A stretch of 47,281 nt of DNA from an uncultured Candidatus Saccharibacteria bacterium (GTDB lineage Bacteria > Patescibacteriota > Minisyncoccia > Phycocordibacterales > GWA1-40-21). The notes beneath the pieces were generated by a model that saw nothing but the letters and a program-made list of their open reading frames with translations, was not told the origin of the DNA and did no database searches. The stretch covers positions 1 through 47,281 of the forward strand of contig CAZAJY010000002.1 of assembly GCA_964485905.1 (NCBI GenBank). The letters run 5' to 3'. A program made the position numbers and the translations under genes. Positions 4,992-46,734 of this stretch are shown here, one piece after another; position 1 is the first letter of the stretch; every line of letters begins with the position of its first letter.

Positions 4992-5006
4992 GTTTGGCTT
5001 GCTTGC

Positions 5007-5023: not shown

Positions 5024-5092
5024 TAGAATATAAGTAGTCGGAAATAAGTAATCTTATTTATTTTATTAACTTTAATAACTAACTTATAAAAA

Positions 5093-7303: not shown

Positions 7304-8917
7304 ATGGGATTTGCGAAAACTTATAGCGCACAACCAAGTGTGCTGGGTGCGAAAATTATTGATGTGGAAGTAGATATTTCCAAAGGATTAAATGCTTTTA
7401 CGGTCGTTGGTTTGGGAGATAAATCAGTGGAAGAAAGCAAGGACCGAATGGCGAGTGCTATCAAAAATTCTGGTTTTAAAAGTCCAAAACAATGTAATCA
7501 AAAAGTAGTTATTTCTTTAGCACCAGCTGATTTGAAAAAAGAAGGGCCGGTTTTTGATTTAGCAATGGCAATTGCTTATTTAACAGCCAATGAAGAAATA
7601 TTTTTTGATACAAAAGGTAAAATTTTTCTTGGGGAACTTTCATTAGATGGAAATTTAAGAAAAATTAGTGGAGTTTTGCCCGCTGTTGCCGAAGCTAAAC
7701 GAAAAGGTTTCAAAGAAATTTATTTACCAAAAGAAAATGCCCGTGAAGCGGCTTTAATTTCCGATATTTTAATTTATGGGGCTGAGACTTTAGAAGAAAT
7801 CATTAATCATTTAACTTTAGATGATAAAAAAGATGCTGATCCAGAAAGTTTTGAAGCTAACGAAAAAAATGTTGAAGAATTAACAAATCGTTTTCATAAA
7901 AATTCTGCAAAAATAAAAAGTCAGCCAAAAACCAAGATTGATTTACCTGATGAAGAAAATGAGATTGATTTTTCTGATGTGGTCGGCCAAGAAAGCGCGA
8001 AAAGGGGATTGGAAATAGCCGCCGCCGGCGGCCATAATATCGCTATGTATGGTCCGCCAGGAACCGGAAAAACTATGCTGGCCAAAGCTTTTTCTGGCAT
8101 TTTACCCCCACTCTCTTTTGAAGAAATTATAGAAATCACTGGTATACATTCCGTCGCCGGCACTCTGCGTGGTGATTTGGTTAGCGTTCCACCTATTCGC
8201 GCCCCACATCATACCGCCTCCTATGTTTCACTGGTTGGTGGTGGCACGATCCCTAAACCGGGTGAAGTAACGCTTGCTCATCGCGGAGTTTTATTTTTAG
8301 ATGAATTTCCAGAATTTGATAAAAAAGTATTAGAAACTTTGCGTCAACCATTGGAAGAAAGAGAGATTAGTATCTCACGCGCGCGCGGTTCCATCACCTT
8401 CCCAGCCAATTTTATTTTAATCGCAGCAATGAACCCCTGTCCTTGCGGAAATTATGGTTCCAAAACTAAAGAATGTATTTGCCGAGCGATTGATCTTTTA
8501 AAATATCAGAGAAAATTATCCGGCCCGATTATGGACCGTATTGATATGTGGGTTGAGGTTTCACAAATTAATCATTCTGATTTATCGGGCCGAAAAAGTG
8601 ACCAGCAAATTAAATCTAACCCAAAAATTAGAGACAGAATCGCTAAGGCAAGATTAATGCAGAAAAATAGATTTGCCAATTTGAGACGTAAGGTAAAAAC
8701 TAATAGTGAAATGAATTCTAAAGATATTTCTAATTTAATAGAATTATCAAAAGATGTTAAAGATATTTTAGATCGAAGCGCCGTCAAACTTGATCTCTCG
8801 GCTCGTGCCTATCACCGGGTTATAAAATTAGCCCGCACCATTGCGGATTTGGAACAGAAAAAAGAAATAGAGTTAAGCCATATCCTGGAGGCGTTGCAAT
8901 ATAGACCTAAAAATTGA
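7304..8917 (+). CDS. comM: YifB/ComM-family Mg-chelatase-like AAA+ ATPase
   Basis: 537 aa. It has an N-terminal Lon-protease-like ChlI region, Walker A GPPGTGKTMLAK, Walker B GVLFLDEFPEF and a zinc-cluster-like NPCPCGNYGS..C.C. Confidence 0.9.
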   Translation: MGFAKTYSAQPSVLGAKIIDVEVDISKGLNAFTVVGLGDKSVEESKDRMASAIKNSGFKSPKQCNQKVVISLAPADLKKEGPVFDLAMAIAYLTANEEIFFDTKGKIFLGELSLDGNLRKISGVLPAVAEAKRKGFKEIYLPKENAREAALISDILIYGAETLEEIINHLTLDDKKDADPESFEANEKNVEELTNRFHKNSAKIKSQPKTKIDLPDEENEIDFSDVVGQESAKRGLEIAAAGGHNIAMYGPPGTGKTMLAKAFSGILPPLSFEEIIEITGIHSVAGTLRGDLVSVPPIRAPHHTASYVSLVGGGTIPKPGEVTLAHRGVLFLDEFPEFDKKVLETLRQPLEEREISISRARGSITFPANFILIAAMNPCPCGNYGSKTKECICRAIDLLKYQRKLSGPIMDRIDMWVEVSQINHSDLSGRKSDQQIKSNPKIRDRIAKARLMQKNRFANLRRKVKTNSEMNSKDISNLIELSKDVKDILDRSAVKLDLSARAYHRVIKLARTIADLEQKKEIELSHILEALQYRPKN

Positions 8918-10152: not shown

Positions 10153-12060
10153 ATGGATCAGCTTAATCAACAGCAAAAAGAGGCGGTTTTACATACGAAT
10201 GGGCCCCTTTTAATCATTGCTGGGGCTGGGGCTGGTAAGACAAAGACCTTAACCTGCCGAATCAAACATTTGATTGAAACAGGCCTTGAACCAAAAAACA
10301 TTTTAGCCATCACCTTTACTAATAAAGCGGCTAAAGAGATGCGTGATCGAGTATTAAGAATGATAGGGGATGAAAGACCTTTTATTAGCACCTTTCACTC
10401 GCTGGGTGTCCATATCCTAAAAGAAAATAGCCGGGAGATCGGTTTGACTCGACATTTTTCCATTTTTGATAAAAACGATTCGCAAAAAGCGATTAAAGAT
10501 ATTATTAAAGAACTGGGTCTAGATCCAAAACAATATGAGCCAAATAAAATTTTAAATATTATCTCGCGAGAAAAAAGTAATTTAAAAAACGCCGAGGATT
10601 TTGTCGAGTCTATTCGCGGCGAAAATTCTACCGCCTTTCATAAGCTAATTGCCAGAATCTGGACAGAATATGAAAAAAAATTAAAAACTGAAAAGGCCCT
10701 AGACTTCGATGATTTACTTCTAAAAACTTATAAATTATTAAAAAATAAGAAAGAGATTCGAGAAAAGTATCAAAATATTTGGTCACATGTTCATATTGAT
10801 GAGTATCAAGATACCAACCAGGTACAATATATGATTGTTAAACTGTTAGTTGAGAAACATCAAAATATTTGCGTGGTGGGGGACATTGATCAAAATATTT
10901 ATAGCTGGCGTGGAGCTGATATAAAAAATATTTTAAATTTTGAAAAAGATTATCCCAAAGCCAAAGTTATTCTCTTGGAAGAAAATTATCGTTCCACCCA
11001 AAATATCTTAACCGTCGCTAATAGTATTATCAAAAAAAATATTAATCGAGTAGAAAAAAATCTTTTCACAAAAAATGGTGCGGGTGAAAAAATATCTCTC
11101 TATGCCGGCTTTAATGAAATAGAGGAGGCACAATATATCGCTAATAAAAGTAAGGAATTAATTGCCTCGGGTGTCTCGGCCCAAGAAATCGCTGTTCTTT
11201 ATCGGGCAAACTTTCAATCACGAGCCTTGGAAGATGCTTTTCTGACCAAAAGCGTGCCTTATCAAGTTTTGGGTACAAAATTTTTTGAAAGAAAGGAGGT
11301 AAAAGATATTATTTCTTTTCTTCGGGCGGGGCTTAATCCTGATAGTCTAACTGACATTAAAAGAATAATAAATGTCCCGGCCCGGGGTCTAGGCAAAGTC
11401 ACTATTCTCAAAATTTTTTCGGGACAAAAGGAAGATTTACCAGCTAGCACTAAAATAAAAGTAGATCATTTTTTTACTCTGCTGAAAAAAATTGGGGAAG
11501 TGGCTTTAGAGAAAAAACCATCGGAAGTAATTAAGTTTATTATCACTGAAACCGGCATTGAAAAAGAATTAAAGGATGGTAACGATGAAGACAAAGAAAG
11601 GTTGGAAAATATGCGCGAATTGGCGACTTTAGCAATTAAATATGATTATTTACCGTTGGGGGAAGGAGTAGAAAAATTAATTGAAGAAGCCGCTTTAGCT
11701 ACCGATCAGGATAGCTTAAACAAAAATGAAGACGCGGTAAAATTAATGACCGTCCACGCGGCCAAAGGCCTGGAATTTGATTATGTTTTTATTACTGGAT
11801 TGGAGGAAGGGCTATTTCCCCATGAACGAATGAACACCGTAAAAAATAAAGAGGGCGGGGAGGAGGAAAGACGATTATTTTATGTTGCCCTAACGCGAGC
11901 GCGCAAGAAAATCTTCCTGACTTACGCCAATGCTCGCACCATCTTCGGTTCACCACAGATAAATATTCCCTCACAATTTTTATCTGACATTGAAGAAGAA
12001 TTTTTAGAGGAGGATAAATCATTTGAATATCGGGAGAAAATAATATATCTTGATCTGTAA
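10153..12060 (+). CDS. UvrD/PcrA/Rep-family SF1 DNA helicase
   Basis: 635 aa. Motifs are Walker A AGAGAGKTKTL, motif II HIDEYQDTN, LEENYRST and VHAAKGLEFDYVFI. Confidence 0.92.
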   Translation: MDQLNQQQKEAVLHTNGPLLIIAGAGAGKTKTLTCRIKHLIETGLEPKNILAITFTNKAAKEMRDRVLRMIGDERPFISTFHSLGVHILKENSREIGLTRHFSIFDKNDSQKAIKDIIKELGLDPKQYEPNKILNIISREKSNLKNAEDFVESIRGENSTAFHKLIARIWTEYEKKLKTEKALDFDDLLLKTYKLLKNKKEIREKYQNIWSHVHIDEYQDTNQVQYMIVKLLVEKHQNICVVGDIDQNIYSWRGADIKNILNFEKDYPKAKVILLEENYRSTQNILTVANSIIKKNINRVEKNLFTKNGAGEKISLYAGFNEIEEAQYIANKSKELIASGVSAQEIAVLYRANFQSRALEDAFLTKSVPYQVLGTKFFERKEVKDIISFLRAGLNPDSLTDIKRIINVPARGLGKVTILKIFSGQKEDLPASTKIKVDHFFTLLKKIGEVALEKKPSEVIKFIITETGIEKELKDGNDEDKERLENMRELATLAIKYDYLPLGEGVEKLIEEAALATDQDSLNKNEDAVKLMTVHAAKGLEFDYVFITGLEEGLFPHERMNTVKNKEGGEEERRLFYVALTRARKKIFLTYANARTIFGSPQINIPSQFLSDIEEEFLEEDKSFEYREKIIYLDL

Positions 12061-31125: not shown

Positions 31126-32226
31126 ATGAAAGTTGAATGTCTAAAAGAAAAATTTTGTTCCGCCGTTTCAAAAGTAGAAAAAATTACCGGTAAAAATATG
31201 ACATTACCGATTTTATCCTGCATTTTAATTGAAGCTAAAGGAAATTTTTTAATTTTGAAAGCAACTAATCTTGATTTAGGTATAGAAATCAAAATACCAG
31301 CCAAGGTTTTACAAGAAGGAATTGTGGCTGTTCCGGGGATTATTTTAAATAGTTTTTTAACAAATTTAACTGGGGATCATAATCTAAAAATAGAAGCCAA
31401 AGATGGGAATCTGTCTATTTTAGGCTCAAATAGTCAAACAACAATAAAAAGCTTACCAAATGAAGATTTTCCAACAATACCAAAAGTTAAAGATGGCAAA
31501 ATTTATGAAATAGAAGCACAAAGTTTAATAAAAGGTTTAAAATCTGTATGGTATAGCGCTTCTTTATCAAGTATTAAACCAGAATTATCTAGTGTTTATA
31601 TTCATGCAAAAGAAGAGGGTTTGGTTTTTGTAGCCACTGACTCCTTCCGTCTAGCCGAGAAAATGGTTAAGTTTAAGAAGAATAATGAATTCGAGCAAAT
31701 TTTAATGCCATTTAAAAATGTTGCTGACCTCCTTAAAATTATTAGTGATGAAAAAGATTCTCTTGCTATTAATTTTACTAAAAATCAAATATCTTTTGAG
31801 TACGGGGACACTTATATTGTTTCTAGAATAATTGATGGGGTCTTTCCTGATTATCAACAGATTATTGCCAAAGACTTTAAGACTGAAGTAATTATACTTA
31901 AACAAGATTTAATAAATATACTTAAATTATCAAACGTTTTCTCTGATAGTTTTAATCAAATTAATATAAAAGTTTCACCGAAGGAAAAAACCTTAGAATT
32001 AAGATCAAAAAATTCTAGTGTTGGAGAGAATGTTAATAAATTATCCGCCATGATTACTGGTGAAGAAATTGAAATAAATTTCAATCATAAATATATTATA
32101 GATTGTTTCCAGTCCATTGATTCTGACAGCGTCTCATTGTCTTTTAATGGACTAAATAAGCCAATGGTCATCCGTGGAATTTCGGACAAATCTTTCACCT
32201 ATCTTGTGATGCCAATGAACCGTTAG
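31126..32226 (+). CDS. dnaN: DNA polymerase III beta sliding clamp
   Basis: 366 aa. It sits immediately after dnaA, has the typical three-domain length and ends with the conserved ...LVMPMNR. Confidence 0.93.
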   Translation: MKVECLKEKFCSAVSKVEKITGKNMTLPILSCILIEAKGNFLILKATNLDLGIEIKIPAKVLQEGIVAVPGIILNSFLTNLTGDHNLKIEAKDGNLSILGSNSQTTIKSLPNEDFPTIPKVKDGKIYEIEAQSLIKGLKSVWYSASLSSIKPELSSVYIHAKEEGLVFVATDSFRLAEKMVKFKKNNEFEQILMPFKNVADLLKIISDEKDSLAINFTKNQISFEYGDTYIVSRIIDGVFPDYQQIIAKDFKTEVIILKQDLINILKLSNVFSDSFNQINIKVSPKEKTLELRSKNSSVGENVNKLSAMITGEEIEINFNHKYIIDCFQSIDSDSVSLSFNGLNKPMVIRGISDKSFTYLVMPMNR

Positions 32227-32242
32227 GGGGTAGTATCAAATA

Positions 32243-32271
32243 CAAACACAAAGGTTTAACCTTGGTTTGAC
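32243..32271. repeat. Module-boundary palindrome S1 (AAGGTT-T-AACCTT core)
   Basis: CAAACACAAAGGTTTAACCTTGGTTTGAC, nested in an outer inverted repeat AAATACAAA (32238-32246) / TTTGTATTT (32276-32284). It begins 17 nt after the dnaN stop. Confidence 0.6.
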
Positions 32272-32352
32272 ATATTTTGTATTTAATGTAAAGTGAAAGA
32301 GGAAGTAGGAAATAGGAGTCCTTTACGTCGCAAACAATAGGAGGGAGACAGT

Positions 32353-33129
32353 ATGAAATGGCCGGAGTTGATGCTCATGATTCGACATGACGTGTCCGAA
32401 TACAATGTGCTCAAGAAGAAAAAGGAGGGAAGCGTCCTATACTGGGAATTCCTTCAGCATTTCAAGCAAGACCCTAACTCAGAGGAGACTCGCCGTTTGG
32501 CCCTTGGGGTTCAAGAGGCGTTCGCCATGGGAATGGGTGATGCTGACACCAATTTGGTGGATGAGGAAGCGGATCGGGCCAGCAAAACTGGCGCAGCCCT
32601 TCGGAGTCTGTATCTGGAGAGACCACCTCACATTATCTTCGTCTCACCATATCGGCGAACCAAGCTGACCTTGTCGGGTTTGAAGCGGGGCTGGCCGGAA
32701 CTAGACGGAGTGAAGGTGGTGGAGGACGAGAGAATTCGCGAGCAGGAGCACGGTCTATCCTTGCTCTACAATGACTGGCGAGTATTTCATGTTCTGCATC
32801 CAGAGCAAGCGGCTCTGCGCAAACTCGAAGGTGCTTACTGGTACCGCTACCCTCAAGGAGAGAGCGTGCCGGACATGAGGGAGAGGAATCGCTCGTGGAT
32901 GGGTACTGTGGTTCGGGACTTTGCTGAAAGGCGGGTTCTGGCCGTTACGCACCATCTGAACATTCTGGGTGTCAGAGCCCATTTGGAAAGATGGAGTGCC
33001 AACAGATTCATTCAAGAGGATCAACAGGACAAGCCGATCAACTGCGGCGTGACGGCTTATTGTGGTCATCCGGAAAAAGGGGAAGACGGACACTTCCTTC
33101 TGGATTACTACAATCGGTGTTTGTGCTAG
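32353..33129 (+). CDS. Histidine phosphatase superfamily (phosphoglycerate-mutase-like) protein, GC-rich foreign gene
   Basis: 258 aa. It has an RH catalytic motif near the N-terminus (LMIRHDVSEYN), a second His motif (AVTHHLNI) and a strong SD (GGAGGG) 7 nt upstream. Its composition is clearly different from the flanks. Confidence 0.75.
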   Translation: MKWPELMLMIRHDVSEYNVLKKKKEGSVLYWEFLQHFKQDPNSEETRRLALGVQEAFAMGMGDADTNLVDEEADRASKTGAALRSLYLERPPHIIFVSPYRRTKLTLSGLKRGWPELDGVKVVEDERIREQEHGLSLLYNDWRVFHVLHPEQAALRKLEGAYWYRYPQGESVPDMRERNRSWMGTVVRDFAERRVLAVTHHLNILGVRAHLERWSANRFIQEDQQDKPINCGVTAYCGHPEKGEDGHFLLDYYNRCLC

Positions 33130-33150
33130 AAGTGGTGCGAAAGGAAAGTG

Positions 33151-33181
33151 AACACGGCAAGCGTAACCTTGCCGTGTTTTT
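33151..33181 (+). terminator. Intrinsic terminator of the GC-rich cassette
   Basis: AACACGGCAAG-CGTAAC-CTTGCCGTGTT followed by TTTTT. Confidence 0.8.
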
Positions 33182-33188
33182 CATTGAG

Positions 33189-33276
33189 CCAGAACAAGGT
33201 TTAACCTTGGTCTGGGTATATTTTCTTCTAAACAACAAATGGTAGACGGTCGTGTGTCATTTATTGTTTTGAAATA
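33189..33276 (+). repeat. Palindrome S2 plus copy A of the 74-nt direct repeat
   Basis: CCAGAACAAGG-TTTAA-CCTTGGTCTGG (33189-33215; the 11-nt arms match 10/11). 33203-33276 matches 34707-34780 at all but one position (T/C). Confidence 0.85.
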
Positions 33277-33297
33277 CGCCATGGCGTATCTGGCGAT

Positions 33298-34113
33298 ATG
33301 TTTTTAGGAGATTTGTGGTACACTTTTGTTATGAGTGAAAATAAAATGATAGAATCTAATACCGAACAAAGGAAAATGGGCGGGGAATTAAAACAAAAAG
33401 CAGAATTTTCTATAGAAAAAGCTAAGCGGGTTATTTTAAATAATATTCCCGACGAGGAAATTATTTCTATTTATGTAAAAGGTAGTTATGCTCAAGGCGA
33501 ACTTCAACCAGATAGTGATGTTGATGTAGTGGTAATCCTTAAAACTGAGGAATATTTACCAAAAGTTTATACTCTGGATACTAACACTTCTAATCCTACA
33601 GAAATTCCCTTTGCTATTGTGGCCTACACATTAAAGGAACTACAAACTGGAGAGAAAGCGGTTAATCGCCCTAAAATTTCTTCTCCTGTTAGTGTTTTTG
33701 TAAAACAATTAGACTTTTTACCACTTATTTATGGCGAAAAGCCAGAAGGGAATTTGTTTACTAGGACAGATAAGAAAGATCTAACTGCCCACCCGAGTGC
33801 ATTTCATAGTACTTTTTTACCTGACTATGTGGTCGGTAAATTTTCTATTCAGGAATTAGTTAAGCAAGCCCTTTGGCTAGCAGATAGGGAACAAAGGTTG
33901 CTGGGTAATGTCCAAGGATATTCTTGGCAAGCTCTTTCTGATTCTGTAAAAGATAAAGATCACATCATCCACACCACCCTCCGTCTTCGCCGACAAGCGA
34001 AAATCTCCACCTTAGAAAAAGCTGATTTTGTACAAAAGCTAGAAACTTATCTTAGTTTTCTTGAGAGTAATTATAATCAGACTAATTTCAAACAAGGTTT
34101 AACTTTGTTCTGA
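33298..34113 (+). CDS. Nucleotidyltransferase-domain protein (Pol-beta superfamily; size and architecture reminiscent of ANT/aadA-type adenylyltransferases)
   Basis: 271 aa as given; the true start could be a downstream Met. It carries the minimal NTase signature VKGSYAQGELQPDSDVDVVVIL. The last codons (QGLTLF*) are encoded by palindrome S3. Confidence 0.6.
   Translation: MFLGDLWYTFVMSENKMIESNTEQRKMGGELKQKAEFSIEKAKRVILNNIPDEEIISIYVKGSYAQGELQPDSDVDVVVILKTEEYLPKVYTLDTNTSNPTEIPFAIVAYTLKELQTGEKAVNRPKISSPVSVFVKQLDFLPLIYGEKPEGNLFTRTDKKDLTAHPSAFHSTFLPDYVVGKFSIQELVKQALWLADREQRLLGNVQGYSWQALSDSVKDKDHIIHTTLRLRRQAKISTLEKADFVQKLETYLSFLESNYNQTNFKQGLTLF
34088..34113. repeat. Module-boundary palindrome S3
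   Basis: TCAAACAAGGTTTAACTTTGTTCTGA has the same AAGGTTTAAC core as S1/S2 and overlaps the stop codon of the NTase gene. Confidence 0.55.
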
Positions 34114-34147
34114 CTTCGATCTGTGATAAATATGATAAAATGGTGAG

Positions 34148-34627
34148 ATGAAAATAGAGACTAGTTGGATTTCAAAGAGGACGGGGAAAGAGGTCAGGGC
34201 CTATTTTGAAGAGGCCGATGACTTTTCTAATTTACCTCAAGAAAAAATAAAAAGCATTTGTGCTTTTTGCTATCTGGACGGACAATTTGTAGTGGTAAAA
34301 AATAATTCAAATTGGGAACCGGTCGCCGGACATGTGGAGGTGGGGGAAACACCAGAACAAGCTTTGATTCGAGAAATAAAAGAGGAATCAAATATGAAAG
34401 TCTTAAAATGTTTTCCTATTGGTTATCTTTATACTTATGGGGAAAATATTTATCAAACGCGGTATTTGTGTTTGGTGGAGCCCTATGGTCCTTTTGTCAG
34501 CGATCCCGATGGTGGGGTGACAGAAATCAAGTTAGTCAAACCAGAGGATCTTCCCTCGGTCATTGATTGGCGTGACACCGCCCTTTTGATGAAGGATCGC
34601 TGTCTCAAAATTCTTACTAATCTTTAA
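34148..34627 (+). CDS. NUDIX hydrolase
   Basis: 159 aa with the Nudix box GHVEVGETPEQALIREIKEESNM (G-x5-E-x7-REUxEExGU pattern). Confidence 0.85.
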   Translation: MKIETSWISKRTGKEVRAYFEEADDFSNLPQEKIKSICAFCYLDGQFVVVKNNSNWEPVAGHVEVGETPEQALIREIKEESNMKVLKCFPIGYLYTYGENIYQTRYLCLVEPYGPFVSDPDGGVTEIKLVKPEDLPSVIDWRDTALLMKDRCLKILTNL

Positions 34628-34637
34628 TTTTTCAAAT

Positions 34638-34671
34638 ACAAAGGCTTCGCCTTCAAAGGCGAAGCCTTTGT
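34638..34671 (+). terminator. Perfect 16-bp hairpin after the NUDIX gene (terminator and/or recombination-site relative)
   Basis: ACAAAGGCTTCGCCTT-CA-AAGGCGAAGCCTTTGT, preceded by the TTCAAATACAAAGG motif shared with S1/S5 and followed by a repeat of GCCTTTGT. Confidence 0.55.
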
Positions 34672-34692
34672 AGCCTTTGTGTGTTTCTGGGA

Positions 34693-34780
34693 CTAGACTA
34701 AGGTTAAACCTTGGTCTGGGTACATTTTCTTCTAAACAACAAATGGTAGACGGTCGTGTGTCATTTATTGTTTTGAAATA
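34693..34780 (+). repeat. Palindrome S4 plus copy B of the 74-nt direct repeat
   Basis: CTAGACTAAGG-TTAAA-CCTTGGTCTGG (34693-34719). 34707-34780 is copy B of the repeat seen at 33203-33276. Confidence 0.85.
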
Positions 34781-34816
34781 TTTGGTAAAAACAAAGTGGT
34801 GTGATAATATTTTTAT

Positions 34817-35173
34817 ATGTCTTGGTTCAGCCCCAAAAATATTCCAGAAACAAATTATAATCCCGATGATCGGGTAGAAGCCTTTGTTATGAAAGCTGGG
34901 CTTATCGGCGCAATTGTTTTAGAAGCTTTTAATAATATAGACCCTCTACATGTTATATATGGTGATAATAGTGATGAATACTTGGGATATGCTGAGCGTT
35001 TTATGAATCAATTAGGAACAAAAAAGTTAAAAGATTTGACTGATGATGAAATATTGACTCTCGTCAGGGGTTCATTTCACCCAAATCAGATTGGTAAATT
35101 TGTTTCCGAGGAAGATATCCAAATTTTAATTAATAATATAAAAGAAATTAAAGTTTCTTTTCCAGATAGATAA
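34817..35173 (+). CDS. Hypothetical protein (cassette ORF)
   Basis: 118-aa ORF starting 37 nt after repeat copy B. No recognisable motifs. Confidence 0.5.
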   Translation: MSWFSPKNIPETNYNPDDRVEAFVMKAGLIGAIVLEAFNNIDPLHVIYGDNSDEYLGYAERFMNQLGTKKLKDLTDDEILTLVRGSFHPNQIGKFVSEEDIQILINNIKEIKVSFPDR

Positions 35174-35177
35174 TATT

Positions 35178-35202
35178 TCAAACACAAAGGCCTAGCCTTT
35201 GA
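35178..35202. repeat. Boundary hairpin S5 (CAAAGGC-CTA-GCCTTTG)
   Basis: TCAAACACAAAGGCCTAGCCTTTGA shares the TTCAAACACAAAGG lead-in with S1 and with the 34631 hairpin. Confidence 0.5.
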
Positions 35203-35214
35203 AAAGCTGAAAAT

Positions 35215-35252
35215 AGCGTGAATTTGGTCAAAAAATGACACAAATTCACGCT
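35215..35252. promoter_or_regulatory. 12-bp perfect (16 bp with one bulge) hairpin abutting the Fic promoter
   Basis: AGCGTGAATTTG (35215-35226) pairs with CAAATTCACGCT (35241-35252). The inner pairing GTCA/TGAC extends the stem. Confidence 0.5.
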
Positions 35253-35256
35253 AAAC

Positions 35257-35284
35257 TTGACTTTTAACATGAATTTACTATACT
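35257..35284 (+). promoter_or_regulatory. Sigma70-like promoter of the Fic operon
   Basis: TTGACT (35257-35262), a 16-nt spacer, then TATACT (35279-35284), 27 nt upstream of the ATG at 35311. Confidence 0.5.
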
Positions 35285-35310
35285 TACTATATAACATTTA
35301 ATATAAAATT

Positions 35311-36201
35311 ATGTCTATACAAAAACCAATAAAAAATCGAATTCAGGAATTGAAGGTTGAATATGATACTTTGCGCAAAGGCAAGGAGTCCCTTTTGTCT
35401 CTACTTGATGAAGCAGAAGCCCCGGAAAGCGTGTACAATTCAAACGCTATAGAAAATTCTACTTTAACCCTCAAAGAGACAGAGAAAATTCTTTTAGAAA
35501 TGGAAGTCTCACGCGATGTCTCAGTCAGGGAAATTTTTGAAGCAAAAAATCTAGCCAGAGTGATTTCTTATACTAGAGAAAAATCACAAGTCGAAGAATT
35601 ATCAAAAGAATTGATCCTATTACTTCATAAAATGCTGATTGGGAATATTAATGATTCTATCGCCGGACGTTTCAGAAAAATTGGAGAATATGTCAGAGTT
35701 GGCACACACGTCGCCCCAGCGCCAGAACATGTAGAAAAAATGATCGAGTCTATTCTGTCGGAATACGGCAGTAATCACGAATTATATTTTTTGGAAAAGA
35801 TTTCAAAGTTTCATCTTGATTTTGAAACTATCCACCCATTTTGTGATGGCAATGGCCGTATTGGTCGGGTCCTTATGAATTTTCAGTTGTTGCGTTTTGG
35901 TTTTCCACGTTTGATTATTCGTGATAAGGAAAAGAAACTTTACTATCAGTCATTTGGTGATTATCGTGATACAAAAAAGACCAAGACTATGGACAGGGTT
36001 ATTTCTTTAGGGCTTTTGGAATCACTTAATAAGCGTGTAGCTTACTTGAAAGGCAACCCCATTATCACTTTAGCTGATTATGCTAAGAAAAATAATATTA
36101 AGACCCCAATCTTATTAAACGCCTCTCGTCGCCAAACTATCTCGGCTTTTAGAGAAAAAGGTGTATGGAAAATCGCTGAGAATTTTATTTATGAAGCCTA
36201 A
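35311..36201 (+). CDS. Fic-domain protein (AMPylase-type, class II with an N-terminal inhibitory motif)
   Basis: 296 aa. It has the canonical active-site motif HPFCDGNGRIGR (HxFx[D/E]GNGRxxR) and an N-terminal SNAIEN matching the (S/T)xxxE(G/N) auto-inhibition helix. Confidence 0.85.
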   Translation: MSIQKPIKNRIQELKVEYDTLRKGKESLLSLLDEAEAPESVYNSNAIENSTLTLKETEKILLEMEVSRDVSVREIFEAKNLARVISYTREKSQVEELSKELILLLHKMLIGNINDSIAGRFRKIGEYVRVGTHVAPAPEHVEKMIESILSEYGSNHELYFLEKISKFHLDFETIHPFCDGNGRIGRVLMNFQLLRFGFPRLIIRDKEKKLYYQSFGDYRDTKKTKTMDRVISLGLLESLNKRVAYLKGNPIITLADYAKKNNIKTPILLNASRRQTISAFREKGVWKIAENFIYEA

Positions 36202-36499
36202 AACAAAACAACTTTTTCGGAAAATCGTTCGGGACTGTGCGGATTGCGGGCGGGAAATGACCGTGTATATTTACGCTGATAAAAAGAAGAATAATTATCG
36301 GGGTGGGCATTACTTCGGCAAGATTGGTATTTGTTCTAAAAAAGAAAATGAAAAAATGTTTAAGTCTGGCATCAGAAAATCAAAATTCGGCAAGCTTGTT
36401 TTAAATGTCTATAAATACGAAGCTAAACCTTATAAATATCTCGAATATTGGGAATGCCCAAGGTGTTATTGGGGGAGGGGGAATACCAAAGCGTCATAA
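36191..36499 (+). CDS. Small basic zinc-ribbon protein, overlapping the Fic gene end
   Basis: I prefer the ATG at 36191 (MKPKTKQ...), which overlaps the Fic gene end (36201) by 11 nt. Two CxxC pairs are present (CADCG ... CPRCYW). Confidence 0.5.
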   Translation: MKPKTKQLFRKIVRDCADCGREMTVYIYADKKKNNYRGGHYFGKIGICSKKENEKMFKSGIRKSKFGKLVLNVYKYEAKPYKYLEYWECPRCYWGRGNTKAS

Positions 36500-36513
36500 T
36501 CCTTAAATATCTA

Positions 36514-36547
36514 GAACGGCTCAACGAGATTACTCGTTGAGCCGTTC
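36514..36547 (+). terminator. 15-bp perfect hairpin after the Fic/zinc-ribbon operon
   Basis: GAACGGCTCAACGAG-ATTA-CTCGTTGAGCCGTTC, followed by GCTTTGGTT (a weak T tract). Confidence 0.55.
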
Positions 36548-36591
36548 GCTTTGGTTGGAAAATAAGGGGATTTTGTGATACCATTTGATTT

Positions 36592-37365
36592 ATGAAAAAC
36601 CTTAAGGAACTAACTAAAAGAAGAGACGATATTCTCGTAGAGATCAAAGATTTGAAAAAGAGGCATGATATATCATGCAATATTTATAATATGGACTGCT
36701 CGGAATTAATATCTAGGATGATTAAAAATGAAATAATCGTTGATTCTATAATAACAGATCCACCTTATAATGTGAGTAGAAAGAATCAACTTGGGTATTC
36801 AAACATGGGTAGGAGTGGAATGAATTATGGTGTTTGGGACTATGATTTTGATCAAATAAAATGGTTAAAAAATATTTCAAAGGTCATTAAACCAGGTGGT
36901 ACTATTATTATCTTTAATAATTGGAAAAATATGGGTGATATTGCTAAGGAACTTGAAAAGCAAGGTTTTATTGTTAAGGACCTAATTCGTTGGGTAAAAA
37001 GTAATCCTATGCCAAGAAATGTCGATCGTAGATATGTTAACGATTATGAATTAGCAATATGGGCTGTTATGGATGGTTCACAATGGACATTTAATAAGCC
37101 AAAAGAGAATTCATATATTCGCCCAGAATTTAGAACAGGAGTTGCTTCTGGTGGTAAAAATAGAATTCATCCAACACAGAAAAATCTGAAGTTGATTGAA
37201 AATATATTACAAATTCATACAAATGAAGGCGATGTCGTTTTTGATCCGTTTCTTGGTTCTGGCACCACAGCGGTTGCGGTATTAAATTGTAAAAGAAAAA
37301 TTATAGGATCAGAGATAGACGAAAAATATTTTAATAAGACACTAGAAAGGATTAAAAATGATTAA
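36592..37365 (+). CDS. Beta-class N6-adenine/N4-cytosine DNA methyltransferase (N6_N4_Mtase family)
   Basis: 257 aa. Motif IV (IITDPPYN) precedes motif I (VFDPFLGSGTTAVA), which is the beta-class order. DPPY favours m6A. Confidence 0.85.
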   Translation: MKNLKELTKRRDDILVEIKDLKKRHDISCNIYNMDCSELISRMIKNEIIVDSIITDPPYNVSRKNQLGYSNMGRSGMNYGVWDYDFDQIKWLKNISKVIKPGGTIIIFNNWKNMGDIAKELEKQGFIVKDLIRWVKSNPMPRNVDRRYVNDYELAIWAVMDGSQWTFNKPKENSYIRPEFRTGVASGGKNRIHPTQKNLKLIENILQIHTNEGDVVFDPFLGSGTTAVAVLNCKRKIIGSEIDEKYFNKTLERIKND

Positions 37366-38227
37366 CTCTCCATTAAATTATACCGGCAACAAATTTAAGG
37401 TACTTAAACAGATTATACCATTGTTAAGTACTGATAAAAAAATAATCTGCGATGTGTTTTGCGGTAGTGGATTGGTCTCATTGAACTCAAATTACAGTAG
37501 GATAATTATGAACGATAATTTTTCTCAAATTATTGACATAATTAATATGTTTATGGATGAAGATTTAGATTCATTAATCAGAGAGATTGATTGCATGATT
37601 AATAAATATGGTTTTACTGATACATATAAAAATAATAAGTCTAAATATTTAGAGAAAAAACATGAGGGTCTATCAAAATATAATAAAGAACCGTTTGAAA
37701 GACTTCGTTCGGATTATATTAATAGACCTACTCCGCTCTTATTATTCATATTAACCATATTTAGCTTTAATCATTATATTAGGTTTAACAAGAAAGGCGT
37801 ATATAATTTACCTGTAGGAAAGGTCGATTTTTCGAAATCTTTAAGAGAAAAAACAAAGATGTATTCAGAAGCCTTGAAACTAAAGAATATAACTTTATTA
37901 AATAAAGATTTTAGAGATAAGCTATTATATGAAAAGGATGCCTTATATTATTTTGATCCCCCATATTTAATCACAAGTGCACCGTATAATACAAACTGGG
38001 GCATAGATGAGGAGTGTCAATTATTAAAAATACTCGATGGGCTAGACTTAAAAGGTAAGAAGTTTGCACTTTCAAATGTTTTGCGTTCTAATGGAAAAGA
38101 AAATAGCATTTTAATCAAATGGAGTAAAAAATATCATATTCATAAAATTAATAGAAAATATACTAATTCAAGTTACCAAAAGAAAAATTTATCAGAAGCA
38201 GAAGAGGTCTTAATAACTAATTATTAA
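37358..38227 (+). CDS. Dam-like (D12 class, alpha) DNA adenine methyltransferase
   Basis: 289 aa. Motifs are NYTGNK near the N-terminus, motif I DVFCGSGLV and motif IV YYFDPPYL. It overlaps the upstream MTase gene by 8 nt. Confidence 0.85.
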   Translation: MINSPLNYTGNKFKVLKQIIPLLSTDKKIICDVFCGSGLVSLNSNYSRIIMNDNFSQIIDIINMFMDEDLDSLIREIDCMINKYGFTDTYKNNKSKYLEKKHEGLSKYNKEPFERLRSDYINRPTPLLLFILTIFSFNHYIRFNKKGVYNLPVGKVDFSKSLREKTKMYSEALKLKNITLLNKDFRDKLLYEKDALYYFDPPYLITSAPYNTNWGIDEECQLLKILDGLDLKGKKFALSNVLRSNGKENSILIKWSKKYHIHKINRKYTNSSYQKKNLSEAEEVLITNY

Positions 38228-38232
38228 TATAT

Positions 38233-40425
38233 ATGGGAACAGCAGGAAACAGAAAAGGTTACAAGGTATTCTCAATTAATACAACAATTAGAAACCCACA
38301 AAGGAATATAGATTTCCTAAAAGTGGTAGCGAATTTTGACGGCTTCAGATTGACCACCAATAATAAGTTAAAGATTTATCATGAATTTATTAAGAATGGA
38401 GTATATATACCTAATAATATTAGTAATGAAATCTTTGATAAGATTAAAAACAAAATTCCGCTAGACGATAAGGAAATATATAAGATAGTTAACGATAACC
38501 CACAAGAAACTGGAAATAATGGTAGAGTTATGACCCAAATTAGGGCTTTGAAAGATTTAGAATTTATTGCGTTGCGTGGCAAAAGAAACCAGCTAATACT
38601 AACTATCACAAAACTTGGTAGAGAATATATAAATGGTGAGGATGTAGAAATCATATATACAAAATCGTTGCTAGGGATGCATTATGGAAACATAAATAGA
38701 AAAACTGTTTTAAACAAGGCGAGACCTTTTCTAAATACAATCTTTATTCTCGATTATTTAAATCGATACTATGAGATAAATGATCCGGAATCAGATTTCC
38801 TAAAAAATGGGATATTATTTCATGAATTTGGAGGGTTTATTCTGTCTATGAAGGATTGTAATTATAAAATAGTAGCTGATCAAATTATTTCATATCGAAG
38901 AGAATTTACTAAGAAATTTAATCCTGATTATTTTAAATCGTATTTTATTGGGAATGGTATTATTAGTTTGAAGGATGAGACTTTTACTTCAGAGTATCCT
39001 GACGAGATAATAAGAAAATTCTCAATGACTGGATTACTTGAGGTGCACGGTAGATCAAAGTATTCCTATATAAGATTTGTTGGATTTAATATTATCAAAA
39101 TAAAGCAGCTTATTAGTAAATATTCGGATTATAAATATGAAGATTTTAATAATGAGGCTGATTATGAAAAATATGTTTCGAATGTCTTCATCCCGTGGGA
39201 GTCTTCCGCTGTTGAAAAAGAGGAAATAATTAATAACCAACTTGCGCAAATTAAGTCATTAGATAAGACATTTGAATTACCTCCAGGTATTGTTGGTGAT
39301 GAAAGGTTAAGGGCTCTTGATAAAAAGAATAGTGAATTTATTTTCAGAGATAAGGTAATAGAAGTTGAGTTTAAGAATATTTATAGAGAACTTCTAATAC
39401 TATCAAGAGAACTAAAGACCAAATCTGAATATGAAGAGACAATACCTGAACCTGTTAGGTTGGAATGGTTAATAGCTTTATTATTTGCAAAACAATATGG
39501 GCATCAATTTGTTAAGCCATCAATGAGACTTAATCCTGATGGGACACCAAAAAGCTTTGCTGGATCTGGTAAGGCAGACATAGTTTTTGAGGATCGTATG
39601 CACATGTATATATTAGAAGCGACTATGATGTCTGGCTCGAATCAACAAGAGAATAGTGAAACTACCTCTGTATCCTCACATTTGAAAGACTATAGTATTA
39701 ACAATAAGTTTAATGGTGCGTTGCTAGTGGCACCAAAGATCCATAATCGTGTAGCAAAATATTTTCAATTTATATTTAATGTTGATCAGTCATTTATGTT
39801 GCCTGTGAGTATTAAACTTTTCTCCTCGGTTGTTGAAAACAATAAGACGATCGATTCTTTCACACAGAATTATAAAGAGATCCATAGTCGACTAATTAAT
39901 TCTGGTTCTAATGTCGAGTCTTTTGTTGATTCTGTGAATCAAGGTGCAGAGGGTAGTTTTAAGGATATAATTATAGAAAAAGAGAAGGATTCTGTTACAG
40001 GAGAGGAGATCTTATCATCTTACACTGGAGCTATGATTAATTTACCACTATATGAATCTGTTGGTTGTGGGGAATTAATGAAGGCAGAAATAATTTCTGA
40101 GGAAACGATTGCTGTACCAAAAAGCTACCTTTCGTCAGGATCAAAGTATTTTGTTCTCAGGGTCACCGGTGATTCTATGAATAAGGCAGGAATAAACGAC
40201 GGAGATTTAGTTTTGTGTGTGAAAAACTATCATCCAGAAATTGGTAATAAAGTGGTTGCGTTAATTGGAGACGACGCAACAATAAAAGAATACCATAATA
40301 ATGGTAAGGTCGTGACTTTAAAACCACGTTCCGATAATCCAAAACATCAACCTCTAGTTTTTACAGATAATGAGGAGATGAAAGTTTTAGGTGTGGTGGT
40401 TAGAGTTTTAGATCAAGAATTATAA
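38233..40425 (+). CDS. AlwI/N.BstNBI-family type IIS restriction endonuclease fused to a C-terminal LexA/UmuD-like S24 peptidase domain
   Basis: 730 aa in one frame. AlwI-family blocks are INTTIRNPQRNIDFLKVVANFDG, GSGKADIVFEDRMHMYILEATMMSGSNQQENSETTSVSSHL, LLVAPKIH and MLPVSIKLF. The S24 module covers residues ~600-730: LPLYESVGCGELM, FVLRVTGDSMNKAGINDGDLVL, ATIKEY and VLGVVVRVL. Confidence 0.8.
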   Translation: MGTAGNRKGYKVFSINTTIRNPQRNIDFLKVVANFDGFRLTTNNKLKIYHEFIKNGVYIPNNISNEIFDKIKNKIPLDDKEIYKIVNDNPQETGNNGRVMTQIRALKDLEFIALRGKRNQLILTITKLGREYINGEDVEIIYTKSLLGMHYGNINRKTVLNKARPFLNTIFILDYLNRYYEINDPESDFLKNGILFHEFGGFILSMKDCNYKIVADQIISYRREFTKKFNPDYFKSYFIGNGIISLKDETFTSEYPDEIIRKFSMTGLLEVHGRSKYSYIRFVGFNIIKIKQLISKYSDYKYEDFNNEADYEKYVSNVFIPWESSAVEKEEIINNQLAQIKSLDKTFELPPGIVGDERLRALDKKNSEFIFRDKVIEVEFKNIYRELLILSRELKTKSEYEETIPEPVRLEWLIALLFAKQYGHQFVKPSMRLNPDGTPKSFAGSGKADIVFEDRMHMYILEATMMSGSNQQENSETTSVSSHLKDYSINNKFNGALLVAPKIHNRVAKYFQFIFNVDQSFMLPVSIKLFSSVVENNKTIDSFTQNYKEIHSRLINSGSNVESFVDSVNQGAEGSFKDIIIEKEKDSVTGEEILSSYTGAMINLPLYESVGCGELMKAEIISEETIAVPKSYLSSGSKYFVLRVTGDSMNKAGINDGDLVLCVKNYHPEIGNKVVALIGDDATIKEYHNNGKVVTLKPRSDNPKHQPLVFTDNEEMKVLGVVVRVLDQEL

Positions 40426-40531
40426 AACAGAAAACTCATTCACCCCATTCGCCAAAAATGGCGAATGAAAATTATTTGGAGTGAAGAACATAAAATTTGA
40501 TGATTTTGGGGCGGTGTGATAGCATAAAATT

Positions 40532-40939
40532 ATGAAAAACAAAGCAGAAGATATAGGAAAAAGGGAAACACAAAAGGAATTTATAATAAGAAAAAGAAAG
40601 GAGATTAAGGACGAGCTTGTGATTTTTTTGAAGGACATCGATCATCCAATGAGGGCTGACGATATCTTGGCAGAAGTCCTTCATGATGATAATGATGAGG
40701 ATTTTAACGATTTTGTTATGTTTCTAGGACGCGACAGTATGATGGAAGATCCGGAGAGCGCTCAAGAAATGGCGATGGACTTGTTCAACTTTTTTCCACG
40801 GCAAACACTTCACGGAAAATCATTGGCGGAACTGATGCCTTTTACGGAGCTTAAGAAGATGGAGAAAGCTTTTCAGGATTTTAAAAATGGCACCGGAGAT
40901 GGTAATTATAGTTATTCCTTGCCGAAGGAATTATGGTAA
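40532..40939 (+). CDS. Hypothetical acidic protein
   Basis: 135-aa ORF with a basic N-terminus and a strongly acidic core (HDDNDEDFNDF). It ends 9 nt before the SWIM gene. Confidence 0.5.
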   Translation: MKNKAEDIGKRETQKEFIIRKRKEIKDELVIFLKDIDHPMRADDILAEVLHDDNDEDFNDFVMFLGRDSMMEDPESAQEMAMDLFNFFPRQTLHGKSLAELMPFTELKKMEKAFQDFKNGTGDGNYSYSLPKELW

Positions 40940-40948
40940 TTTAATTAT

Positions 40949-41677
40949 ATGATACCAAAATTTGATATTGAAAAAATAAAGTTTTCTGTTGACGAACCTA
41001 CTTTTAATAAGGCTGTGAATTTGTATGAGGGTGGAAAAGTGGTGGATTTTAAAGAGGAATTTAATGGTTATTCCGCTATCGTGGAAGGTACGCATCCATA
41101 TCAGGTATCTGTTGATATTAATCATCATGATAGGGGGAATTGTAATTGTTATCTGGGAATGGAAGATATTTTATGCAAGCATATGGTGGCAGTCGCCATT
41201 TATGCGTTGTTTAAGGGTAAAAAAATTGATGAGCAAGATAAGAAAATATCTAATCAACCTATTTGCAGTGGTAAATTAGGAATTCTAAATAGAGAAGAAC
41301 TAGCTGAAATTAAAAAGAAAATTACTGAGGCTTTTAGGTACATCAAGCCCTATAGTGGACCATCAAAGACTTGGTTTATATATCAAAATTCATTGACTGA
41401 AGGTTGTGGTAGGTTATCGGCCTTAATTTGTAACTTCCCTGTAAGTGTTCAAACAGCCAAACTATTGGTGGATATTCTTATGAGGGCTGAAAAAAAGATA
41501 TTAGATGGAGGTGTTGATGATTCTGATGGGACAGTGGGTGATTTTATGACTTTGACGGTGGAAGTGCTAAAAGAATACGCCAGATTAAATCCGGATTGTG
41601 TGGAGTCTTTTAAAACTCTCAAAAATTTATCAACCAGTTTTGGCTGGGAGGAGCCACTGGTAAAATTGATGAAATAA
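40949..41677 (+). CDS. SWIM zinc-finger protein
   Basis: 242 aa with the CxC-x(n)-CxH signature CNCYLGMEDILCKHMVAVAIY after an N-terminal beta-rich region typical of bacterial SWIM proteins. Confidence 0.7.
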   Translation: MIPKFDIEKIKFSVDEPTFNKAVNLYEGGKVVDFKEEFNGYSAIVEGTHPYQVSVDINHHDRGNCNCYLGMEDILCKHMVAVAIYALFKGKKIDEQDKKISNQPICSGKLGILNREELAEIKKKITEAFRYIKPYSGPSKTWFIYQNSLTEGCGRLSALICNFPVSVQTAKLLVDILMRAEKKILDGGVDDSDGTVGDFMTLTVEVLKEYARLNPDCVESFKTLKNLSTSFGWEEPLVKLMK

Positions 41678-41917
41678 TAAAACACCATATTCATAAATAA
41701 ACAGGTAGAGATTCTTACTCGCTCGGAATTTGGGGGGAAAAGTGTTGCTAAATAAGGTAAAAATAGGTGAGATTGTAAGTTAGTTAACATTGCTTGCGTT
41801 GTATATAACTAAGTACCAACTTAGTTATATTTCATGATTAGAAATGTTAAATCCATCTTATTTATAATGATAATAGGCTTCGCTAGGACCGACCTCAAGG
41901 AAGGCTCTTTAGGGTGA

Positions 41918-41963
41918 ATACCAAGGCTAGGCTTTGGGATTACCCAAGGCCGAGCTTTGGTAT
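41918..41963. repeat. Tandem pair of 17-nt hairpins forming a 46-nt imperfect palindrome (right edge of island)
   Basis: ATACCAAGGCTAGGCTTTGGGATTACCCAAGGCCGAGCTTTGGTAT, made of CCAAGGC-TAG-GCTTTGG and CCAAGGC-CGA-GCTTTGG. It is related to S5 (CAAAGGC-CTA-GCCTTTG). AGGCTTCGC at about 41875 recurs at about 34642. Confidence 0.6.
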
Positions 41964-41999
41964 GCAGATAGAATTAATGATATAATTTAAATATATTTT

Positions 42000-42254
42000 A
42001 TGTTTAATATTGCTCAATATTTAGAAAAATTTAGGAATCTTGGGTTGGGGGAGAGGAGAATAAAAGAGGCGATTAAAACTTCGGTTAAAGAAGTGCTTAA
42101 TTTTGATTTGGAGACAAAAGATATTTTAGTAAAAAATGGCGAAGTAATTTTTAAAGTTTCGCCTGCGATGAAAAATAGTATTTTTATAAAAAAAGAAGCC
42201 ATTTTAAAAAGAATGGAAGAAAATGGAGTGAAGAATGTGGGTGATATACGCTAA
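42000..42254 (+). CDS. Small hypothetical protein (possibly DUF721/DciA-like, weak)
   Basis: 84-aa ORF. The pattern ...KNGEVIFKVSPAMKNSIFIKKEAILKRM resembles the 'strand-strand-helix' core of DUF721 proteins often found near dnaN. This call is from memory only. Confidence 0.4.
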   Translation: MFNIAQYLEKFRNLGLGERRIKEAIKTSVKEVLNFDLETKDILVKNGEVIFKVSPAMKNSIFIKKEAILKRMEENGVKNVGDIR

Positions 42255-46266: not shown

Positions 46267-46734
46267 CTATCTGTTGGTGGCGAAATAGGTGAGTCCACAA
46301 GCGATTGCGTCATATTCATCATCATATTTCAACGGCTCAACGGCGATGAGCCGTTCAACCATTTGAATTACTTGGTTTTTATCACTTTTACCATAACCAG
46401 TTACAGCTACTTTGATTTGTAAGGGGGTGAATTCAGTTATTTTTAATCCCGCCTTAGCCGCTTCATATAAAATTACACCTCGGGCTTCGCTCACCTTCAT
46501 TGCCGTCTTGGCATTGGTTTTGAAAAATAAATTTTCAATTGCCAAGGCTTCGGGCTTGTATTTTTTAATTACTTTTCCTATTTCTTCTCCAATTGACCTT
46601 AATCGGTCTTCATGTTTTTCTTTAGCTGAAGTTTTAAAACATTCAGAAAAAACCAGAGTTTCCCTTCTAGTTCCTTTTTCTAATATGGCAATTCCTAGTC
46701 TTTCGTAACCGGGATCTATAGCGATGATTTTCAT
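46267..46734 (-). CDS. ruvC: Crossover junction endodeoxyribonuclease RuvC
   Basis: 155 aa. Motifs are MKIIAIDPGYERLGIA (first catalytic Asp), AIENLFF and DEYDAIACGL. It is downstream of yebC as in many bacteria. Confidence 0.9.
   Translation of the reverse strand: MKIIAIDPGYERLGIAILEKGTRRETLVFSECFKTSAKEKHEDRLRSIGEEIGKVIKKYKPEALAIENLFFKTNAKTAMKVSEARGVILYEAAKAGLKITEFTPLQIKVAVTGYGKSDKNQVIQMVERLIAVEPLKYDDEYDAIACGLTYFATNR

Follow-up and report, generated by a model that had tools for sequence, protein, structure and literature searches.

The question raised by this locus is what kind of element the short palindromes are that stand at the gene borders of an accessory island next to dnaN. The window, a 47,281-nt stretch of DNA (contig CAZAJY010000002.1, assembly GCA_964485905.1) from an uncultured Candidatus Saccharibacteria bacterium, contains five such sites, S1-S5, which a first-pass annotation had interpreted as dif- or pdif-like core sites of Xer tyrosine recombinases delimiting a small array of gene modules. 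The analysis presented here favours a different identity: S1-S4 are probably repetitive extragenic palindromes (REPs), or elements of the type that forms REP doublet hairpins (REPINs), belonging to a system that resembles those of the REP-associated tyrosine transposases (RAYTs). On this reading the genes of the island are separated by REP-type repeats and are not Xer-bounded units. REP/REPIN-RAYT systems, whose E. coli enzyme is TnpA-REP, are known from E. coli and Pseudomonas (PMC3479197, PMC3116915, PMC5581495).

Reading of the region 31800-35700 confirmed the positions first given for the five sites and for a perfect palindrome at 34638-34671. Sites S1, S2 and S4 have the 13-mer AAGGTT[T/A]AACCTT in common, S1 and S2 share an exact 15-mer (AAGGTTTAACCTTGG), and S3 carries a degenerate version of it, AAGGTTTAACTTTGT. 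When the 15-mer was searched for in the 47-kb window with at most three mismatches, the plus-strand matches were S1-S4 only, accompanied by a weak minus-strand match at 43321. The consensus for the S1-S4 type of element, (C)AGAC[C/T/A]AAGGTT-W-AACCTT[G/A]GTCT(G), spans 25-27 nt and forms a hairpin of 12-13 bp in single-stranded DNA (ssDNA). The earlier description of 11-nt arms around a 5-nt centre therefore had to be revised: GGTT-W-AACC is itself palindromic, so that the symmetry passes through the supposed centre, and arms of 12-13 nt surround a single base, which is A in S4 and T in the other three sites. As ssDNA, the S2 hairpin folds at -11.6 kcal/mol (z -6.1) and the S4 hairpin at -7.0 kcal/mol (z -3.7), with S1 and S3 being weaker.

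The relationship proposed for all five sites held for S1-S4, with their common core, and not for S5, which together with the palindrome at 34637-34672 and a doublet at 41918-41963 makes up a second subfamily (CAAAGGC...GCCTTTG) that has only AAGG-N5-CCTT in common with the first. This looser core has seven matches in the window against 1.0 expected, a number reached in none of 100 shuffles; six of the seven fall within 32251-35199, S5 and both halves of 34637-34672 being among them, and the 41918-41963 doublet fits the core with one mismatch. The palindrome at 34637-34672 (-20.4 kcal/mol, z -8.7) has the appearance of a REPIN-type doublet belonging to this second group, and the doublet at 41918-41963 folds at -18.5 kcal/mol (z -5.3). 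Within the window S1-S4 are singlets, and the doublets belong to the second subfamily. Outside the island, neither the flanking core DNA (37 kb) nor approximately 72 kb of DNA from relatives had any copy of the window hairpins.

In their similar size (27-28 bp), inverted arms and placement at the borders of accessory genes, the S sites do resemble the dif and pdif sites used by XerC and XerD, the latter on Acinetobacter plasmids. However, the 27-nt palindrome is continuous down to one base and leaves no room for the asymmetric central region of 6-8 nt (6 nt in dif and pdif) in which strands are exchanged; distinct arms for XerC and XerD, 11 nt each in dif and pdif, are missing as well, and no resemblance to a dif sequence was seen.

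The palindrome recurs in other genomes. A scan of AAGGTTWAACCTTGGTYTG against 185,579 genomes, one per species, matched 17 stretches, approximately the number estimated for chance, and seven of these came from two metagenome-assembled genomes (MAGs) of the Candidate Phyla Radiation (CPR), one labelled Minisyncoccia (loci L005, L006 and L015) and the other Saccharibacteria (L004, L008, L009 and L017), MAG taxon labels being given here and below as deposited. A stricter 23-mer retrieved 12 further metagenome stretches and had no copy in viral contigs. Across the CPR loci that were read, 35 distinct copies were collected, with the consensus YYAGAC[C/T/A]AAGGTT-T-AACCTT[G/A]GTCTRR. The pairing of the arms appears in the pattern of compensating changes, as 45 cells were altered on both sides compared with 27.5 +/- 5.4 in shuffled data, a value reached in 0 of 500 shuffles; examples include C-G, T-A and T-G at position +/-7 and C-G and T-A at +/-13. 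Inverted doublets occur in L004, L006, L008, L009, L017, L019 and L023, with centres 23-41 nt apart, and fold as one long hairpin (-22 to -27 kcal/mol). Of direct relevance here, S2 contains a stretch of 26 nt that recurs without a change in L006 and L023, as the right half of a REP doublet, which in L006 lies beside a RAYT-like gene.

Most of the 35 copies (about 28) are intergenic, including some in housekeeping spacers such as the one ahead of rplJ in L036; four run into the 3' end of an open reading frame (ORF) by no more than 18 nt, and three are located inside one PIF1-like helicase gene. In this helicase gene a REP doublet is present in frame (L026 8459-8500, and at the same site in L008 744-785) between the ATPase and 2B domains, where it encodes ..DQGLTLVQTKVKPWSE.. 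and leaves the ORF open.

Evidence for a RAYT-like system also comes from the gene that the palindromes accompany. In L004 (the same locus as L028 and L036-L045), L006 and L019, palindromes lie 5-80 nt from both ends of an ORF of approximately 225-236 aa that matches Pfam Y1_Tnp at E ~1e-8. In these other genomes the palindrome stands beside an HUH/Y1 transposase gene of RAYT type and not beside a tyrosine recombinase, as the Xer interpretation would have had it. The HUH motif (N-H87-F-H89-L) and the motif S-Y147-I-H-L-N151-P are invariant across 15 family members, and both align with E. coli TnpA-REP, with its HUH region and DYIYINPVKH, respectively; the latter motif contains the nucleophile, Y115, and a metal ligand, N119 (PMC3479197). 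By sequence, matches in the PDB were marginal only (4er8 at E 0.66 with a single sequence, ISDra2 at approximately 1 with a profile), and a comparison of folds was therefore required. With an AlphaFold model of the RAYT-like protein (mean pLDDT 84.8), the only Foldseek match in the PDB below E 1e-3 was 4er8 (E 1.2e-5, probability 1.0, target TM-score 0.65), the structure of E. coli TnpA-REP bound to a REP hairpin. The IS200, IS608 and ISDra2 transposases followed more weakly at E ~0.02.

The genomic setting of the gene points the same way. The L004 protein (P0006) was found on 24 contigs and had the same neighbours in 10 of the 10 places shown. By the criteria of PMC5581495, this would be expected for a RAYT, a one-locus gene, rather than for an insertion sequence. 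A PKD-domain gene follows the RAYT-like gene at L036 8001-10073, L047 10001-12442 and L049 10001-12185; this adjacency is kept in copies 55-73% identical to the L006 protein, a ribosomal-protein operon is close by in two of three genomes, and the chromosomal position of the RAYT-like gene appears conserved. The palindrome changes along with the enzyme: in the distant homologues the flanking palindromes are GGACAAGG-ACTGT-CCTTGTC (L026), GCGAAGG-CCAGA-CCTTCGC (L047) and ACCAAGG-TCTGG-CCTTGGT (L049), and the core AAGG-N5-CCTT is kept in all three. In addition, each of these homologues has its own palindrome copied inside the RAYT-like coding sequence (L026 3956-3981, L047 10172-10198, L049 approximately 10197-10209), where it sits in a variable loop before the HUH motif. 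The family is large, with 7,776 protein clusters in CPR at E <= 1e-5 among 8,000 candidates scored.

Compared with the systems of E. coli and Pseudomonas, the CPR elements agree in being short imperfect palindromes, mostly extragenic, that occur singly or as inverted doublets forming a long hairpin, and that, in the CPR genomes other than that of the window, stand on either side of a one-locus HUH/Y1 transposase gene. They differ in that the CPR protein is longer (approximately 225-236 vs. 165 aa) and shares only about 15% identity with its counterpart in the structural alignment, the arms are nearly perfect with a minimal loop, the copy number is seemingly in the tens rather than the hundreds, and the copies in the window are restricted to an acquired island, with no RAYT in the 47 kb. 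The IS200/IS605 insertion sequences and their miniature derivatives (palindrome-associated transposable elements, PATEs) likewise combine a Y1 HUH enzyme with subterminal ssDNA hairpins and a hairpin-flanked transposase gene. In contrast to those, the CPR gene is at one conserved locus in the places read and is not multicopy, its palindrome is identical on both sides and also scattered alone elsewhere, and the fold is less similar to the IS608 and ISDra2 TnpA proteins than to TnpA-REP.

If the CPR transposase works like the IS200/IS605 enzymes and E. coli TnpA-REP (PMC3479197), it would bind the hairpin on ssDNA and would cut and rejoin beside it through a 5'-phosphotyrosine intermediate, and copies would spread in trans into tolerant spacers. 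For the organism studied here, the gene for the enzyme would lie in another part of its genome or in those genomes from which the island DNA came. The hairpins could have arrived with island DNA from genomes having the system; alternatively, a resident enzyme would seed hairpins that are tolerated only in the long dispensable spacers of the island, core genes here being a few bases apart.

Site S3 gives an indication of how a copy may settle in a spacer. As first annotated, it supplies the final codons and the stop codon of the nucleotidyltransferase (NTase) gene. All 11 aligned homologues of the NTase (58-78% identical) end in ...LE(S/G)(T/K)Y(K), and the window protein adds the 11-residue sequence QTNFKQGLTLF encoded by S3. 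As the homologues end about 11 residues sooner and the nucleotide homology to a relative, L051, stops at 34076, a copy of the palindrome is taken to have landed on the NTase stop codon. At the other end of this gene, the ORF start as listed is probably too early, since homologues align from residue ~12-30, and the true start is probably ATG 33331 or later. The same NTase was found in one other assembly only (L018, a near-identical contig of 9.9 kb, ENA ERZ27248937), with an identical arrangement.

Several observations weigh against the REP/RAYT interpretation. The best NCBIfam model for the flanked ORF is indeed 'REP-associated tyrosine transposase', but its 43-47 bits are below the cut-off of 80. 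No guide tetranucleotide (GTAG or CGTC in the known systems) was conserved at the hairpin foot over the 35 oriented copies, where the orientation of a near-perfect palindrome is ambiguous and a weak signal could escape. About 13 copies were counted in the pieces of the Saccharibacteria-labelled MAG, which looks low; these pieces were picked because they bear the motif, and the copy density is therefore not estimable from them. In the 47-kb window itself, tblastn found no RAYT homologue. Every window copy lies in the acquired island, so that for this organism the data do not establish a family dispersed by an enzyme of its own. Binding and cleavage of REPs by the CPR enzymes would follow by analogy and are a prediction. 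Finally, simple transposition of a hairpin leaves an 86-nt direct repeat unexplained.

The two copies of this repeat begin with the palindromes, S2 and S4 being their first 25 nt (5' ends), so that the left edge of the repeat is the hairpin foot. Four of the five differences between the copies lie in the 25-nt palindrome. The remaining 60-nt extension has its own stem-loop and had no further match among the fetched loci. Reading S4 as S2 with an inverted hairpin reduces the differences from four to three by eye and explains nothing, and the repeat was rejected as a promoter since the likely -10 elements fall outside it. A likeness may be drawn to the bacterial interspersed mosaic elements (BIMEs) of enterobacteria, composite units of intergenic DNA built from REP hairpins and further short motifs: the 86-nt repeat combines a REP with a second hairpin, and mixed hairpins are dense in 34637-34719. 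The CPR composite differs in having no sequence relationship to BIMEs and in being known from two copies, both in the window. Lying in direct orientation 1.5 kb apart, the copies could permit loss of the NTase and NUDIX genes through homologous recombination.

The island itself bears on whether the palindromes bound mobile units. DnaN homologues 83-87% identical to that of the window are present on many contigs. In relatives, a conserved 84-aa ORF follows dnaN after 4-6 nt (five loci read and two gene-map listings), and beyond it come a penicillin-binding protein, a tRNA synthetase and ruvC. Synteny in the window resumes at this ORF, and positions 32227-41999 are therefore a 9.77-kb insertion, which was missing at the dnaN locus in five of the five relatives' loci read. 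S1-S4 occupy its left 2.5 kb. The genes of the island are, in order, a histidine phosphatase, the NTase, a NUDIX hydrolase, a 118-aa ORF, Fic, a 112-aa ORF, two methylases, an AlwI-like endonuclease fused to an S24 peptidase, a 135-aa ORF and a SWIM protein, and several of them match PADLOC defence candidates. The deviating base composition of the phosphatase was confirmed, its segment having 56% GC vs. approximately 36% for the window.

In a relative (L051-L053), the same blocks were found in a different order (Table 1), from which the island is judged, on nucleotide homology, to be a mosaic reshuffled at the gene level. This altered order would be compatible with S1-S5 being Xer core sites and the genes between them modules moved by site-specific recombination, as would three window breakpoints that lie 8-16 nt from hairpins (S3, S5 and 36514-36547), the homology to L051 beginning 8 nt after S5. 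However, L051 joins the same blocks through spacers of 9-80 nt that contain neither hairpins nor S sites, and the shuffling thus has no need of the S sites. Breakpoints must fall in spacers, where REPs also accumulate, and their proximity to hairpins is therefore weak evidence. The motif is missing from the flanks of the NTase homologues in L046 and L051, and site-bounded modules were not found in other contexts. The island ends have no common repeat of at least 9 nt, direct or inverted. No tyrosine recombinase and no Y1 transposase was detected by Pfam and tblastn among the ORFs scanned (in 1-21.7 kb every ORF of 120 aa or more, and further those of the dnaA-dnaN-island region, with 21.7-29.5 kb being judged only by synteny with relatives), which agrees with the first-pass remark that the window has no recombinase gene. 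Together with the continuous palindrome, the flanked HUH/Y1 gene and the copies in housekeeping spacers, these results render the Xer explanation very improbable. What survives of the proposed module array is its association with mobile DNA, i.e., palindromes of mobile type in a mosaic accessory island absent from relatives; the idea that the sites bound its cassettes does not.

A related alternative retains the hairpins as working junctions: the RAYT-like HUH enzyme would mobilise REP-flanked ssDNA segments, much as IS200/IS605 elements may hold cargo between left-end and right-end hairpins, and defence islands next to dnaN in CPR bacteria would be assembled and reshuffled in this way. S1 and S2 exactly enclose a foreign GC-rich gene, the 86-nt repeat starts at the hairpin foot, and hairpins of the family are found at both island edges (S1 and 41918-41963) as well as beside three block boundaries. 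Strand transfer by E. coli TnpA-REP has been obtained in vitro (PMC3479197), and the L046 homologue of the NTase is likewise bracketed by hairpin-containing repeats, of different sequence. This explanation is nonetheless unlikely, as the blocks of L051 are without hairpins, no case was found of the same gene with the same hairpins in two contexts, the window has no RAYT, and the closeness of breakpoints to REPs may be trivial when both are confined to spacers.

A third possibility is an ordinary role in gene expression, unconnected with mobile DNA, in which the palindromes act simply as intrinsic terminators, as stem-loops that stabilise mRNA or as binding sites (operators) for a local regulator. 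The sites are positioned 5-90 nt downstream of stop codons, ATTTT follows 4-5 nt after S1, S2 and S4, and S4 was called terminator-like by a terminator consensus scan; the T-run, however, is short and offset from the stem. Near-identity over 25 nt across MAGs labelled as different CPR classes would be unexpected for such signals, doublets flank both ends of the RAYT-like gene, and none of the hairpins occur in the window core or in relatives, making this explanation, taken by itself, distinctly improbable. REPs of E. coli terminate or stabilise transcripts, and a role at transcript ends is therefore compatible with REP identity; settled hairpins in the island probably also act as transcript-end structures.

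Last, the small accessory genes in a single orientation, with structured repeats between them and no integrase in view, could suggest integron attC sites in a cluster of attC sites lacking an integrase (CALIN). The attC boxes have the consensus RYYYAAC / GTTRRRY, which GTTTAAC or GTTAAAC in the core of the palindrome would fit. At 27 nt, however, the repeats have about half the minimum length of attC (approximately 55-140 nt); they lack the R''-L''...L'-R' layout and the extrahelical bases, the boxes of the doublets are in the wrong order, no intI is present in the window, and the association is with a Y1 transposase instead. The longer 86-nt unit was also considered as an attC site and rejected on inspection, there being no GTTRRRY box downstream of its RYYYAAC. 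The attC explanation is accordingly given next to no credence, and REP-type elements of a RAYT-like system are retained as the probable identity of S1-S4.

Table 1. Palindromes, repeats and genes in and around the dnaN-proximal island, with homologous blocks in the relative L051 (nt, nucleotide identity).
Feature	Window position	Strand	L051 position	Remarks
dnaA	29564-30910			Pfam
dnaN	31126-32226	+		Pfam; left synteny anchor
Accessory (defence-type) island	32227-41999	+		9.77 kb, between dnaN and 84-aa ORF
S1	32243-32271	.		Candidate REP-type palindrome CAAACACAAAGGTTTAACCTTGGTTTGAC, core AAGGTTTAACCTTGG, outer arms diverged; 17 nt past dnaN stop, island left edge
Histidine-phosphatase gene	32353-33129	+		Between S1 and S2; own hairpin terminator 33151-33178
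S2	33189-33215	.		Candidate REP-type palindrome CCAGAACAAGGTTTAACCTTGGTCTGG; central base T
86-nt direct repeat, copy 1	33191-33276	+		S2 plus 60-nt extension
NTase gene	33298-34113	+		3' tail from S3
NTase block	33389-34076		5035-5722	73.5% nt identity
S3	34088-34113	.		Candidate degenerate REP copy TCAAACAAGGTTTAACTTTGTTCTGA; NTase last codons (..KQGLTLF) and stop
NUDIX hydrolase gene	34148-34627	+		Pfam
Perfect palindrome	34637-34672	.		17-nt arms; two inverted AAGG-N5-CCTT units, AAGGCTTCGCCTT and AAGGCGAAGCCTT
S4	34693-34719	.		Candidate REP-type palindrome CTAGACTAAGGTTAAACCTTGGTCTGG; central base A
86-nt direct repeat, copy 2	34695-34780	+		S4 plus 60-nt extension; 95% identical to copy 1
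118-aa ORF	34817-35173	+		Without family match
S5	35178-35202	.		Hairpin CAAAGGC-CTA-GCCTTTG, second subfamily
Fic block	35210-36202		4001-4993	85% nt identity
Fic	35311-36201			Pfam
112-aa ORF (143-aa ORF in L051)	36233-36548		3609-3920	81% nt identity
59-nt 5' region	36564-36622		5761-5819	83% nt identity
Two DNA methylases	36592-38227			Pfam
AlwI-like endonuclease fused to S24 peptidase	38233-40425			Pfam
S24 domain	40026-40419		7752-8145	73% nt identity
S5-like hairpin doublet	41918-41963	.		CCAAGGCTAGGCTTTGG / CCAAGGCCGAGCTTTGG; island right edge, ~40 nt ahead of 84-aa ORF
84-aa ORF, conserved	42000-42254	+		Right synteny anchor

Other structured sequences were observed in the window and its relatives. 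The terminator hairpin of the phosphatase gene at 33151-33178 has TAACCTTG in common with the REP core, and its centre is approximately 37 nt from that of S2, the spacing of REP doublets; it may be a degenerate REP partner or a chance match. Two GC-rich hairpins, 36514-36547 in the island and 46328-46358 in the core near ruvC, both contain AACGGCTCAACG and may represent a terminator family. The hairpin CATTCGCCAAAAATGGCGAATG lies just past the AlwI-S24 gene (40446-40467) and also in the accessory region of the relative L046 (5911-5932 and 6840-6861). A different direct repeat, of 58-99 nt, is present in L046 in three copies (5803-5914, 6722-6833 and 7385-7442) that bracket the NTase homologue together with the ORF after it. 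The S24 (LexA-like) domain, located C-terminal to the AlwI-like endonuclease in the window (38233-40425), is fused to an SLFN-like helicase in L051 (6139-8151). Far from the island, the 800 nt at 4283-5092 are without an ORF of at least 120 aa and contain three strong palindromes, 4771-4803 (16-nt arms), 4810-4834 and 4872-4893; this segment had neither an Rfam nor a tRNA match. At gathering thresholds Rfam matched no part of the window, and at E <= 1 it matched nothing in 32000-35400; the window also holds no tRNA that could have served as an integration target.

Most of the REP/REPIN-RAYT systems known come from Proteobacteria, with a few other phyla also represented, and they have been discussed as long-lived, vertically inherited 'replicators' within genomes. 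Full-text literature searches for REP or RAYT in CPR, Patescibacteria, Parcubacteria or Saccharibacteria found no description of such a system, the co-occurrences of these terms being incidental; this type of system is itself well known, and it is the CPR host group that is new relative to the searched literature. For annotation, the results advise against taking short palindromes between the genes of CPR islands for Xer or integron sites. The protein P0001 and the S2 sequence provide a candidate enzyme-substrate pair. Should it be true that the hairpins help to join island modules, this would constitute a new route of gene capture, a step that the data presented here do not demonstrate. MAGs labelled Saccharibacteria and Minisyncoccia share a REP of almost the same sequence, and their transposases are 71-79% identical; judged from these sequences, this might reflect horizontal spread of a REPIN-RAYT system, a type usually regarded as strictly vertical. 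Overall, the known picture is extended to a very large CPR family of RAYT-like proteins, with lineage-specific AAGG-N5-CCTT hairpins in each lineage examined, and to bacterial genomes that are among the most streamlined known, in which repeats of this kind would not be expected.

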